A DNA stretch of 64,000 bases, taken from Octopus vulgaris (Eukaryota). The position numbers and the translations under genes are program-made. Of this stretch, positions 4,754 through 62,145 are shown one piece after another. The stretch is taken from positions 58,838,001 through 58,902,000 of the forward strand of contig OX597814.1 of the NCBI GenBank assembly GCA_951406725.2. The letters are read 5' to 3'. Numbering within the stretch: position 1 is the stretch's first letter; every line of letters begins with the position of its first letter. The notes beneath the pieces are model-generated. The model had not been told where the DNA came from. It made no database searches and saw nothing but the letters and a program-made list of their open reading frames with translations.

Positions 4754-5580
4754 AGCATAATTAAATCTCAGAATGAGATTGAAACAGTAATCGCTCGATA
4801 ATGTAAAGTATAGAAGCCATCTTATCATGGCTAACCACATTGGGGAGGGGGTTGTTACTGTAGCTTTATAGCCCCAAGAGATCTTCGTCTCTAGCTGGCT
4901 CTAAACACAATATCTGTGTCTTTGGAGTATTTGCAAAGGGAGGCCGTCCCTTCCTCGCAAGCCTGAGTGATACGCTCGAACTAGTTTCGGGATGTTTGTC
5001 CCTCGCCAACGGGCGGCAACCACCAGGTAGCGAAGATATATTGGGGCTATAAAGCTACAGTAACAACCCCCTCCCCAATGTGGTTAGCCAGAATAAGATG
5101 GCTTCTATACTTTACATTATCGAGCGATTACTGTTTCAATCTCATTCTGAGATTTAATTATGCTTACTGTTCGTTTTTCGACATCAGTGGCAGACGCCAT
5201 TAGAAAAACTTATATCTATTTGCAAAGGAGCCTTCACTTTCATCGCTACCTGGTGGTTGCCGCCCGTTGACGAGGGACAAACATCCCGAAACTAGTTCGA
5301 GCGTATCACTCAGGCTTGCGAGGAAGGGATGGCCTCCCTTTGCAAATACTCCAAAGACACAGATATTGTGTTTAGAGCCAGCTTGAGACGAAGATCTCTT
5401 GGGGCTATAAAGCTACAGTAACAACCCCCTCCCCAATGTGGTTAGTCATGATAAGATGGCTTCTATACTTTACATTATCGAGCGATTACTGTTTCAATCT
5501 CATTCTGAGATTTAATTATGCTTACTGTTCGTTTTTCGACATCAGTGGCAGACGTCATTAGAAAAACATATATCTATTTG
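4754..5580 (+). mobile_element. Non-autonomous Penelope-like / retrozyme-type element: inverted arm + ~1.5 tandem copies of a 358-nt unit
   Basis: 4754-5035 is the reverse complement of ~5243-5522. ttggggctataaagc recurs at 5041 and 5399. Flanked by aaaacaaacat (4743-4753) and aaaataaacat (5581-5591). Contains a hammerhead motif. Confidence 0.85.
5261..5303 (+). ncRNA. Minimal type I hammerhead ribozyme (C3U core variant)
   Basis: cgcccg-TTGACGA-ggga caaaca tccc-GAAA-CTAG-TT-cgagcg. Palindromic helix III AACTAGTT, GUU triplet, one mismatch in helix I. A second, mutated copy (TTGGCGA) lies on the minus strand at 4973-5015. Confidence 0.7.
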
Positions 5581-6762
5581 AAAATAAACATCATTTTCGG
5601 TTTAAAAATTTTTTTTTTTTTAGACATTCATTAGTACAACACCAAAAAAATCCTCCCAAATATATGGCACACTAGGCATAACAACAACATGAACTTCCAA
5701 CCTGTTGTCTCTTAAGGTCTCTGGGTGAGACTTGGAGCCAACTTGTACAAATATAAAGCAAAAGTCAAACATAGAATAATAATAATAATAATAATAATAA
5801 TAATAATAATAATAATAATAATAATAATAATAATCATAATAATAATTCGGAGACGACTAGTAGGAATGTCTTTTAACCATTAGTCCAAATGCTTAATTGC
5901 CTGTATAATCGTAAAAACAAAATTATCTACACTTCAGAAATAGGTATTTAAGGAAAAGTATATTCTATCAGTGTAAGCTAATAACAGGATATCGTACATA
6001 GAATTACGTAGGTTCATCTGCTACAATTTGAAAATCTATATTTCATAATTATCCTTTCATTTAAGTATAGAAAAAAAAATAATTCAGCAAACCTTAGCAG
6101 ATGCATTTGGGATTTAAAATATACAAAACGGTAAGTATGATTTGTCAGTTTTACGTGTGATCTTTGCCCTCAAGAAATGTATTATATAATTACTTCTAAA
6201 CTAATTTCATTAATATTTAATGGAAATTTGACAATGAATTGTTGCCACAAATTTCGAAAGGGTTTAAATATATCAATTCTTAATTTTAGTTGTTTTTTGT
6301 ATGTTATATAATAAGAATAATTTTGCTCAAAAGTTTACGATATTTCACATAAAGATAACTAATAGTTGTGACGGAAAATCACTGTTCTTTATTGCAACGT
6401 AGAATTCTTATGTTCATATTTTCTTATTTCTTTCTCCACTGTTGTCACACGAGTTAAATACAAAAATATGTACTCTTACATTATATCTTTCCTTGGTGTT
6501 CACTTTACATGCGTTCGCATGTATTTTCGGAAATATTAATTTCAATAATTGCTATGTTTGCATATATTAAAACAATAGAAACAATTGTCGGATTTGTGTG
6601 GTGAATTCTACAATTTACATCCTAAGATGTGATTTTCTCCATACGTATTTTTATTACACACACCGCACACACATACACACACACACACACACACACACAA
6701 ATATATATATATATATATATATATATATATATATATATATATATATACAAACATTTCTATAG

Positions 6763-6947
6763 TTATGAGAATAATTATAATTGGGGTTCAGCAAAATTGC
6801 TCCGCTACATACCGGCATTTAGAATTAGCATTTAAATATTATTCCACTTTCAGACAGTGGCAGTGGAATAGTATTTAACTGCTATGTCTAAGTTTCGGTA
6901 TGTGGTGAAGCAATTTTGCTGAGCCCTAATTATAATTATGCTTATAA
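6763..6947. repeat. ~85-bp imperfect inverted repeat between (TA)n arrays
   Basis: 6763-6848 is approximately the reverse complement of 6862-6947. Confidence 0.8.
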
Positions 6948-7161
6948 TTTTTGTATAATGTTACCGATAATGGTTCTTTTAACATACCGAAGTACTTGGT
7001 AAAATTATTAATTAGTAATTAATTAATTTTACCCTTTATTATTATTGATAATATCATATATATTTATATATATATATATATATATATATATATATATATA
7101 TATATATATAAATATTAAATTTCTAAATATCTCAGAGAGATATAAGCTGAGGTGGAACATT

Positions 7162-7574
7162 AGAGCAGTTGTATACTGGCAACTTAATGTGACAGCCCCA
7201 TAAAGGGAATCACACCATCGCTATTTAGCCTTAGGAAGCATCAACGCTTCCTGTCGGCCTTAACACATTTCTTGTGTCCTTATGTTTACAAAGGAGAGAC
7301 AAGCACCCCCATCCAGCTAAGCCTGCACCCAGAGACATGTTTCTGAGTCTTTGCCCGTCATCAGTCTGGAGTAGCATGGCCTACTAGACTCAGAAACATG
7401 TCTCTGGATGCAGGCTTAGCTGGATGGGGGTACTTGTCTCCTCTTTGTAAACATAAAGACACAAGAAATGTGTCAAGTCCGACAAGAAGTATTGATGCTT
7501 TCTAGGGCTAAATAGCGGTGGCGTGATTCCCTTTATGCGACTTTCACGTTAAGTTGACAGTATGCAACTGCTCT
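7162..7574. mobile_element. Inverted-repeat Penelope-like / retrozyme-type element, ~190-bp arms
   Basis: 7162-7350 is approximately the reverse complement of 7386-7574. TA arrays on both sides. Sequence is related to the 358-nt unit at 5041-5398. Confidence 0.8.
7329..7369 (-). ncRNA. Minimal type I hammerhead ribozyme, canonical core
   Basis: Minus strand: ccaga-CTGATGA-cggg caaaga ctca-GAAA-CATG-TC-tctgg. Perfect 5-bp helix I, palindromic ACATGT, GUC cleavage triplet; first pair of helix II mismatched. Confidence 0.82.
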
Positions 7575-59466: not shown

Positions 59467-61149
59467 AATAATAATAATAATAATAATAATAATAATAATA
59501 ATAATAATAATAATAATAATAATAATAATAATAATAATATACACACATACGTACATACACTCACTGTGTGTGTGTGCCTGTGTGTGTATTATATTGTATA
59601 GAGAATGCAAACTAAAGACACGGGAGTGCGAAAGAGAGAAAACTGATTTAACGACAGATGTTAATTTTAATTAGTATGATTATTTACCTGATATAGAAAT
59701 GGAAATTTGCAACTTGAATGATGGTTGTTCTACGAAGTTCATTTATGTTATAACCACTACCATTATGAGGCTAATTAGATTTTTATGATCACGATTCGGG
59801 AGTAAACTCTAAATTCAGACTATATTAAGCTATCTATATTTGCATTATGACTTTCATGTTCAGAAACTGATTTACAGCTGTTCAGGAGTAAATTTAATAT
59901 AAATTGTGTACAGTTCGAATATAGTATCAAGAATGTTTATCACTGGTTTCTAATTTTAAATTACATTTGAATACGCGCTTTATTAACACAGGGTTTGATG
60001 AGAGATCAAGTCAAGTAGAAGACTGTATAGTTTCCATAAGTAATTATTCTACATGAAACTGTCCTAAATAATTGAGGAAGTGATTTCTTGTGCAGAGGCT
60101 TGAATGCCTGAATATAGCAGTTAATTAACAGTGTTCAAATAACAGATATTTAATGAAATTGTAAGAATAGTTCCAGCTGTCTTAATTTTTCTTGTCTTAA
60201 GTAATATTTCACTAGCTAATCTAAAGAGCTACATGGACATTAACCAATACATCTAGGAGGAGCAGAGAAGGAAATCCTTAATGCGCATCAATAGTTGTTT
60301 GTTATATTATAGAACAATAAATCTTTCATCAAAGGCTACACAAACACGAAGGATAGGGCATAAGGAAATTCATTTAAATTTCGATTAATATATCAAACTA
60401 GCTAATCTTGACATCCATTTGTAGACTTTTGATAATTGCGAAACATCATATACAGACGGAGATAATTTTAATAATCAAAGAATTTGTGTCTATGTTGTAT
60501 GTTGTTTGATTTATCCATGCAACACACTACTCTGAGTTTTTTTCCCTTAGGTCACTTCTGTTTCAGTATATACATGCACAGATGCACTCATATATACATA
60601 CACGCATTCATGCACATATTCATACATAGCATTTGTACAGATTGATACACACGTACGAATATAAATTTATGCAAATGAAATTTATTACAGATATATTCAC
60701 ATCTGCATTTATATATATATTCATACTTGCATACGTTCGCGCACATACCAAAGTATGCATGCATGAATGTACAAATGCACATAGGCATCTACAAATTAAT
60801 GCGCGTCTTAATATCGATGTCACAAATTAATATGTTAAGGTATTAACCGATAGTTAAACAGTTTCCTCTGCATGTTATTCCACCCGTTTATTTTGTTTTT
60901 GATGGTATTTGTATTGTTTTATAACATAAGTTGCTATTAAACCATGTAAATCATATCCTTCCTTTTACCCTTTGTTCCTCCTGTCTCTATAGGTTAATAT
61001 CGTAATAGCTGTTTAGATTAGCTGATGGAAATTAAAACAGGTGGTACACTTCTTATAATTTTATTAACCGTGTTTCATTTATCAACCAGAAACTATTCCT
61101 AATACGTGCCAGGAACACTTGATCTCTTGTTGTGTGCTACAGAGTCGTG

Positions 61150-61700
61150 CATCTTAACGTCCAATTTGTCAGATGCGGAGTCCGCATTTATAACATTTGC
61201 TATCGACATTGTATCCATTTTGTACTGTAACAGTTATACACCTGGACAGGAAGCTTGGAAGGAACGTGAAGAGATTTAGTTCAGTCTACTATTTATTGGA
61301 CCTAATAGACCATCTGGTACATTATTATTTTCATTTAATACTTAGAAGCTTCAGATTTGTGCCTTACCTTTCGCTTACAATGCAACGTATCCACTTTTCT
61401 GGTGTTTATTTCAAAAAGGTTTCCTACAGAATTGAGAGCCAGAGCAGCAAGTTACGACGTTCCGTAAGCTAATATGTATTTGTAAACGATGGGCGCTATC
61501 ATCTGCGTAGCTTGCCAAGGGAGACTCTCTGACCAAGTGAAAGCACGTCTCAAAGGTTCACTATGAATTGCAGTGGCCCGAAGACAGAGCCCAGTGGAAT
61601 ACCTGTCATTATCTTGCTCCTTTTAAAGTAGTTCTATTAGTCACCATTGCCTGATTTCTATTTCATAAGAAGCCGTGTAACCATTCTCCAAGTTTTCCAA
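61150..61700 (-). mobile_element. Old CR1/L2/Jockey-type RT remnant
   Basis: Minus strand TGIPLGSVFGPLQF and SYADD. Confidence 0.65.
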
Positions 61701-61916
61701 TAATGCCAACATCAAGAAGCTTGTGACATATATGTGTATACACGCATTATAAGAAGTGTATAGACACAGACACACACACACACACATATATATATATATA
61801 TAGATATATATGCATATATATATATGTACATATATATATATATATATATATGTATATACACACACATATATATATATATATATATATATATATATATATA
61901 TATATATATATATATA

Positions 61917-62145
61917 CGTTATTTAAAAGGAGCAGAAAATATAACAAAAGCTGTTACTCAGACTTTCACGTTCTCGTTCAACGGACAGTTTTGTTTAGCA
62001 AAATTGTCCGACGAACGGGAACATGAAACTCTGAGTAACAGCCTTTGTTATATTTCTGCTGCTTGTAAGTAAAGCATATTACTCTACCTCTGGTATTTGA
62101 GTACTCTTTTTTCCACCTTGGTGACTTTTATGTGCTTACTCCGGT
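61917..62145 (+). mobile_element. Short inverted-repeat element next to (TA)n with variant hammerhead motif (62004-62041)
   Basis: 61921-61993 is approximately the reverse complement of 61999-62071. ttgt-CCGACGA-acgggaacat-GAAA-ctctgag-TA-acag. Confidence 0.65.

Follow-up and report, generated by a model that had tools for sequence, protein, structure and literature searches.

Type I hammerhead motifs with a largely palindromic helix III in short repeats of Octopus vulgaris, and their probable relationship to Penelope-like elements as well as to retrozymes

A stretch of 64,000 nucleotides (nt) from the Octopus vulgaris genome (GCA_951406725.2, contig OX597814.1, positions 58,838,001 to 58,902,000; hereafter the window) was analysed for type I hammerhead ribozyme motifs carried by short repeats. 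Full motifs with a self-complementary helix III are present in five repeat types, designated F1 to F5, and a sixth (F6) contains the 3' half only. We consider it likely that these are mostly decayed hammerheads, located in truncated 3' ends of Penelope-like elements (PLEs) in F3 to F6 and in PLE-moved, protein-less retrozymes in F1 and F2, and that the palindrome lets copies of the same element pair. The evidence from the window comprises the motif excess, the insertion layout, the adjacency to (TA)n, the 358-nt unit of F1, the F1–F2 pairing homology and the modelled energies of like over mixed dimers, while the steps of the mechanism are taken from published systems.

The GC content of the window is 34.8%, and runs of (TA)n and (TAA)n are abundant. 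A type I hammerhead descriptor that required a palindromic helix III and tolerated no more than one core mismatch, written after the motifs had been seen, returned four sites (5267+, 7364−, 54323+ and 62008+); in 100 block-wise dinucleotide shuffles the mean was 0.22 sites, and no shuffle gave more than one. For an exact CUGANGA the figures were two and 0.02. The comparison with dinucleotide-shuffled sequence, by which the original prediction was to be judged, therefore places the full palindromic motif above chance. With any helix III allowed, the count was at chance level (six sites versus 3.9), and the two non-palindromic sites (11454+ and 5561−) were dismissed. The bare half motif (GAAAC-palindrome-H) occurred eight times versus 3.55 ± 1.7, a count that includes inverted-arm duplicates and was reached in two of 200 shuffles, so the hammerhead status of F6 is unproven. 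A chance origin of all the motifs within AT-rich repeats is scarcely credible: it may hold for F6, and the non-palindromic matches are at chance level, but each full motif lies in a repeat arm near a 3' end, pairing is kept between F1 and F2 despite their divergence, and the excess of four over 0.22 refutes a chance origin for F1 to F5 as a set. As a set these motifs are real and above chance.

Coordinates of the repeats are given in Table 1. The motifs GAAACTAGTT (5288, plus), GAAACAATTGTC (6578 and 16309, plus), GAAACATGTC (7334, minus), GAAACATATGTC (54384, plus) and GAAACTCTGAGTA (62025, plus) were all found where they had been predicted. The F3 motif, placed at 23125 (minus) and 23516 (plus), stands as a two-arm consensus, except that the plus arm starts at 23517 and both arms are damaged. 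Inverted copies additional to those predicted were found for F1 (4979–4988, minus) and F2 (7393, plus). The expected count of about six hammerhead families thus reduces to five with full motifs, of which F1 and F2 are sister subfamilies, plus the half motif of F6.

Table 1 Repeats and associated features of the window, in order of position
Feature	Position	Strand	Basis or remark
F1 host, C-terminal frame of a non-LTR retrotransposon	4195..4731	+	protein similarity
F1 insertion (truncated arm in inverted orientation, incomplete direct copy, one whole 358-nt unit)	4754..5580		self-BLAST
F1 hammerhead of the inverted arm, additional A6>G	4973..5015	−	sequence
F1 partial direct copy, pLTR-like, with tail absent from the inverted arm	5031..5222	+	self-BLAST
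F1 monomer, 358 nt, retrozyme-like	5223..5580	+	self-BLAST, junction-spanning contigs
F1 type I hammerhead (core UUGACGA, 4-bp helix II, palindrome ACUAGU, site GUU)	5261..5303	+	descriptor and contigs
F6 copy a, 48-nt repeat from GAAAC, hammerhead-like 3' half only	6578..6625	+	self-BLAST
F2 arm with full hammerhead (7328–7370), intact core, palindrome ACAUGU	7116..7385	−	descriptor, sequence
F2 inverted arm, 3' half of motif only	7386..7574	+	sequence; starts 7 nt before GAAAC, ends at (TA)n
F6 copy b, the same 48 nt with an unchanged start, flanked by TA-rich runs	16309..16356	+	self-BLAST
~550-nt family copies	17571–18125, 18473–18984, 19081–19507, 57675–58214, 58265–58374, 58375–58695, 58919–59466		
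F3 left arm, hammerhead 23120–23207 (all core bases, broken palindrome, 60-nt helix II region)	22990..23330	−	sequence
F3 right arm, hammerhead 23445–23533 (A15.1>G)	23331..23565	+	sequence; ends 38 nt past site at (TA)n
Short F4 element with (TA)n runs on both sides, hammerhead 54317–54401	54278..54443	+	descriptor, sequence
F5 hairpin, hammerheads 62004–62041 (+) and 61951–61988 (−)	61917..62072		self-BLAST, descriptor

Helix I forms four or five of its first five pairs within each of F1 to F5, as opposed to zero to three across families, and the homologous F1 and F2 motifs have changed in all helices and still pair, which agrees with the prediction that helices I and II differ in sequence but remain paired. 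The further claim that helix III is self-complementary throughout holds for F1, F2, F4 and F6, where the palindrome is perfect; in F3 it exists in the consensus only, and in both arms of F5, which also share U4>C, it is a 9-nt near-palindrome with an unpaired centre.

The F1 locus measures 827 nt and is inserted in the 3' untranslated region (UTR) of a non-LTR retrotransposon (LTR, long terminal repeat); an 11-nt near-duplication borders it on both sides (4743–4753 and 5581–5591, one mismatch, read by eye). The host frame is approximately 60% identical to the C-termini of proteins bearing reverse transcriptase (RT), many of about 1200 amino acids (aa), and the host 3' UTR extends to (AAT)n at 5775; this host is presumably an R4/Dong element. 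The F1 unit has a GC content of 43.6% and no Pfam-detectable coding frame. Parts of 4200–5770 occur in four organisms. A family-level view was obtained from contigs of four sequencing runs aligned to 5180–5770, in all of which junction-spanning contigs occur at high depth, indicating that the junction 5222/5223 is common to many F1 copies. Contigs with variants at 5216 and 5228, situated 28–39 letters from contig ends, span this junction, and the unit is therefore arranged head-to-tail; no loose contig end at 5222/5223 was found among those listed. Summed depth in run X1 was approximately 5 × 10^4 across the junction and 3 × 10^4 to 1 × 10^5 over the hammerhead, with depths of 22–74 for the eight longest listed X1 contigs, which points to copies in the order of 10^3, depth being no direct copy number. 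The locus itself holds one direct hammerhead and 1.5 direct units, no contig spans a whole unit, and the tail is present on direct copies only. Contigs of run X11, which may be RNA, also cross the F1 site and were counted neither for expression nor against cleavage. A short TA-repeat-like stretch precedes the unit junction (5202–5222 and 5560–5580), its TA character strengthened by the common variant at 5216, and is possibly a remnant of a captured (TA)n target.

In the core of F1, no variant was listed at U3 (5267) in any of the four runs, making U3 family-wide. At G8 (5272), A makes up 6–10% of depth, and the adjacent C has no listed change; F1 thus consists mostly of U3–G8 copies, with a U3–A8 minority. 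A C–A mismatch in helix I is fixed in all four runs, as is U3 opposite G8 (no variant ≥5%). The cleavage-site triplet is GUU at this locus and GUC in other F1 copies, C at position 17 (5297) accounting for 96% of depth in X1 and 11–22% in the other three runs. Both U3–A8 and U4C are natural hammerhead variants (Perreault et al. 2011, PMC3088659), the former also in the hammerhead of the Schistosoma PLE Cercyon (PMC4209133), and they match the F1 minority and both F5 arms, respectively. In contrast, the uncompensated U3–G8 wobble of the F1 majority is not listed as a family-wide natural core in the accessible part of that survey (PMC3088659).

F1 and F2 could instead be ordinary repeats, similar to short interspersed nuclear elements (SINEs) or satellites, that carry a catalytically dead hammerhead relic and spread independently of cleavage. 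The two fixed F1 defects suit this explanation, as do the finding that PLE insertion in vitro needs no cleavage (Frangieh et al. 2024, PMC11167929) and the fact that only one of nine Xenopus retrozyme dimers was cleaved (Li et al. 2026, bioRxiv 10.64898/2026.07.22.740005). We nevertheless regard it as possible rather than probable, since all three helices have changed between F1 and F2 and still pair, other F1 copies carry GUC (5297) and a better-paired outer helix I (5259), and the U3–A8 minority is unaccompanied by a listed matching C>T at the neighbouring CpG base and fits a compensated subfamily. In vitro, the Anolis Poseidon PLE protein prefers AT-rich targets, starts internally, which gives the tail, and copies mainly uncleaved RNA (PMC11167929). 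This agrees with the window copies, which run across the cleavage site, and even a weak U3–G8 family could thereby spread as a PLE-moved retrozyme.

The bodies of F1 and F2 share 132 identities in 193 aligned columns, a score reached by none of 500 shuffles (nhmmer E 2e-6). F2 is thus a diverged sister subfamily of F1. It has a canonical core and helices I, II and III that all differ from those of F1 yet pair, helix II being weak and mismatched at the base. Folding of the F1/F2 consensus was left out of the argument, there being only two independent lineages. Loose contig ends at 5301, seen in four, eight and six contigs of runs X1, X3 and X8 (agreement 0.57–0.69), show the F1 body continuing into another GAAA...GUC module, with palindromes that are not confidently readable; we read these as further sister subfamilies that carry a different hammerhead module. 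Depth just downstream of 5301 rises strongly in X3 and X8, where these sister subfamilies may outnumber F1. That the sister subfamilies differ in the sequence of helix III, which nevertheless stays palindromic, is a small new point.

An intact F3 motif exists as a two-arm consensus only, the plus arm having A15.1>G and the minus arm a broken palindrome, and the left arm reaches further at its 3' end, up to (TA)n. F4 is the only fully intact copy, with the complete core, GUC, G10.1–C11.1, a 6-bp helix I and the palindrome ACAUAUGU; its helix II region is 54 nt, AAUAAA follows the hammerhead, and a weak inverted remnant lies at 54299–54312 (E 0.15). The left arm of F5 ends at (TA)n. F6 is a real repeat and an unproven hammerhead, and it shares one palindrome with F3, although no mutual similarity was detected among the 3' parts of F3 to F6. 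Exact scans gave no match for a stretch of F6 in metagenome, prokaryote and viral collections, nor for a stretch of F1 in metagenome and prokaryote collections, all of which probably lack this animal. Arms start at or just before GAAAC at 6578 and 16309 (same base), 7386 (7 nt before) and 54312 (the weak F4 remnant); such starts could mean that reverse transcription stalls at helix II, a reading open to ascertainment bias.

The link to PLEs is drawn from the arrangement of the copies. F1 combines an inverted arm, a partial direct copy, a full unit and a one-sided tail. F2, F3 and F5 each form a two-armed hairpin, with an extension on one arm only in F2 and F3. PLE insertions are characterised by 5' truncation, partial tandem structure, an adjacent inverted copy and a tail on one end (Craig et al. 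2021, PMC8557442), and because the window repeats match this published layout in their inverted arms, partly tandem structure, tails on one side and 3' ends next to (TA)n, we associate them with PLEs. F3, F4, F5 and F6 copy b end 38–49 nt past the predicted cleavage site, at (TA)n. With distance cut-offs that were set after the distances had been seen, (TA)n occurs within 50 nt of the cleavage site at four of seven loci (5% of background positions) and within 250 nt at six of seven (17.7% of background), with P ~2e-4. The predicted adjacency to (TA)n is thus general with the clear exception of F1, where the nearest run is 1404 nt downstream. Inverted arms were likewise borne out for most elements (F1, F2, F3 and F5), the elements being less distinct than proposed in that F1 and F2 are sisters. 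The AT-rich or (TA)n targets are also shared with PLE insertions (PMC8557442, PMC11167929), from which the window copies differ in comprising only the terminal 50–360 nt and in having no clade assignment. Thirty recently active Penelope families are reported for O. vulgaris in an annotation whose main text makes no mention of ribozymes (PMC13282606). Two 180-nt hairpins without a hammerhead motif (6763–6947 and 10833–11008), each of two diverged arms with ~80% identity, are possibly other truncated PLE-type ends.

Membership of F3 to F6 in the Naiad PLEs, whose hammerheads would have escaped notice through a long helix II, is highly improbable. Octopus Naiads do target (TA)n, Naiad_Ovul is marked HHR_half_core, and helix II of F3 and F4 is long, but none of five window motifs was found at the 3' end in the Naiad consensus files, in which line breaks could hide matches; two motif matches in these files lay inside coding-like sequence, and approximately 600 3' letters of Naiad_Obim are unlike F3 to F6 by eye.

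Several observations weigh against hammerheads of PLE and retrozyme origin. All core bases are kept at only three of 11 sites (F2 minus, F3 minus and F4 plus), the other eight having an altered core or being half motifs; the palindrome is perfect at two of these three, helix II is mismatched at its base in F2 minus and F3 minus, and F4 plus alone also has a closed helix II. The helix II regions of F3 and F4 (54–60 nt) contrast with the published 7–8-bp helix II of minimal hammerhead ribozymes (min-HHRs). No Rfam hammerhead model matched, either among 131 window matches to E 5 or among 14 matches to E 10 in 4900–7650, the matches obtained being hairpin and microsatellite noise only; to our knowledge, the Rfam models poorly cover dimer-type variants such as these. 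Given its family-wide U3 opposite G8, F1 may be a poor or dead ribozyme, and it is to F1 that all family-level data refer. The predicted circle fold of F1, calculated on a decayed copy, is only modestly structured (z = −1.9 versus shuffles, 60% paired). Finally, no PLE RT or GIY-YIG frame was found by Pfam in 289 of 413 stop-to-stop frames (≥55 aa, low-complexity frames dropped), so that layout is what the PLE link relies on; the matches obtained were a long interspersed nuclear element (LINE) RT (54557–55882) and a weak endonuclease (42785–43069).

Minimal or atypical type I hammerheads in PLE pseudo-LTRs (pLTRs) have reportedly been described by Lunse et al. The min-HHRs occur in thousands per genome, in many divergent families with a palindromic helix III, and include opposite-strand pairs 100–700 bp apart and a U3–A8 variant, with molluscan examples in Lottia and Crassostrea (Cervera & De la Pena 2014, PMC4209133). 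The window motifs agree with these pLTR hammerheads in being type I with a short helix I and palindromic helix III, in their divergent families, and in occurring mostly as lone motifs on truncated copies or as close opposite-strand pairs; their helix III keeps 2–3 bp and a palindromic loop, the form there termed atypical. They differ in the long helix II regions of F3 and F4 and in having no linked PLE coding frame.

Non-LTR retrozymes are 350–390 bp in mussel and 170–400 nt across metazoans, with <45% GC; unit RNAs of mussel, coral and axolotl are circular, and a high degree of self-pairing is ascribed to such circles (Cervera & De la Pena 2020, PMC7229834). In vertebrates, retrozymes are derived from pLTRs (bioRxiv 10.64898/2026.07.22.740005). 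F1 shares with those of Mytilus the lack of a detected coding frame, a head-to-tail unit of matching size and GC content, a type I hammerhead whose helix I has 6 positions and whose helix II has 4 bp, and a high copy number. It differs in a locus of 1.5 direct units with an inverted arm and a single direct hammerhead, in a U3–G8 rather than C3–G8 family core, and in being known here from its sequence alone. The suitability of a palindromic helix III for dimer cleavage, cited in the original prediction, is published biology (PMC4209133, PMC7229834, PMC6765202), and the proposed diversified, high-copy system of ribozyme-bearing retroelements corresponds to the published PLE pLTR hammerheads and non-LTR retrozymes with many families per genome.

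Based on these systems, a tandem transcript would bring two hammerheads together, and helix III, too weak for a monomer, would pair between the two copies, with helix I by geometry then also formed between partners. Cleavage would release unit-length RNA, possibly circularised. A PLE RT-endonuclease would nick AT-rich DNA and copy uncleaved or circular RNA, leaving 5'-truncated direct and inverted copies. Since the window copies extend across the cleavage site, their template was uncleaved or re-joined.

The original prediction went further in suggesting that each palindrome acts as a family-specific dimerisation code, whereby co-resident families would have been selected for incompatible palindromes, perhaps together with helix I, to avoid cross-cleavage or cross-inhibition. 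In a strand-swapped dimer model with nearest-neighbour energies relative to separate folds and no tertiary core, like dimers ranged from −4.8 to +3.5 kcal/mol and mixed dimers from +14.3 to +27.1 kcal/mol, and sisters of one lineage do differ in palindrome (ACUAGU in F1, ACAUGU in F2 and at least one more at the 5301 loose ends). We nonetheless find the code very improbable. Mixed dimers form 2–6 of 12 helix I pairs versus 8–12 in like dimers, and 4–6 helix III pairs versus 6–8; as the lost pairs belong mostly to helix I, family incompatibility in the model would arise mainly there. F3 and F6 share a palindrome, with a cross duplex of −6.7 versus −7.0 and −6.4 for like pairs, and with 16 possible 8-nt palindromes of this form, three families would show one collision by chance with a probability of ~0.18, so collisions are not visibly avoided. 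Differing palindromes do not demonstrate selection for a code, because any palindrome-keeping change automatically gives incompatibility. A review models dimer cleavage by such hammerheads within a single transcript, between its tandem copies (PMC6765202); pairing across families would then be of little consequence. The palindrome differences are thus likely, on these modelled energies, to be compensated drift under a constraint to stay palindromic, and nothing requires selection for incompatibility. A more elaborate scenario, which we consider rather unlikely, is a radiating octopus retrozyme lineage (F1, F2 and further sisters with a common body) whose members exchange the entire dimer interface (helix I and the helix III palindrome), each cleaving only with its own kind, with F1 midway through a core change from C3–G8 via U3–G8 to U3–A8, the wobble being dominant and still amplifying.

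The window also contains other repeats. A (TAA)n-flanked family of about 550 nt is represented by six copies and a fragment, 80–94% identical, with a tandem and inverted cluster at 57675–59466. It was rejected as a seventh hammerhead family, since CUGACGA occurs in it without a GAAAC-palindrome to match, and it is not related to F1 or F2 (230 and 333 of 500 shuffles, respectively, score as high). Decayed fragments related to the F1 host element are located at 2134–3939 (+), 4192–4728 (+), 17030–17206 (−), 19917–20198 (−), 44955–45811 (−) and 50707–51568 (−), several of them beside (TAA)n. The LINE RT frame on the minus strand is uninterrupted over 442 aa (Pfam RVT_1, E 2e-21), with a best match of 76% identity to an Octopus bimaculoides protein and a next of 67%; we assume it to be an RTE element. 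A plus-strand frame at 31428–32018 had no Pfam match and is, by eye, presumably a decayed mariner-type transposase fragment.

Earlier publications already cover dimer-type PLE hammerheads, the presence of many families in one genome, and retrozymes of molluscs. A literature search, mostly outside subscription papers, revealed no octopus hammerhead families, palindrome code or U3–G8 family, although Lunse et al. may cover octopus motifs. The present additions are small: the octopus members, the family-wide U3·G8 core of F1 with its U3–A8 minority, and the palindrome-keeping sisters. With them, the range of PLE hammerheads and non-LTR retrozymes extends to octopus. The 2026 annotation of O. vulgaris reports approximately 900 recently active unclassified SINE families (PMC13282606), some of which may be retrozymes. 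By uniting retrozyme size with a PLE insertion layout, the F1 locus supports, in an invertebrate, the proposed mobilisation of retrozymes by PLEs. The sister subfamilies would serve as natural reagents for asking whether cleavage is needed for spread, given the U3–G8 core, and whether helix I or helix III chooses the partner.

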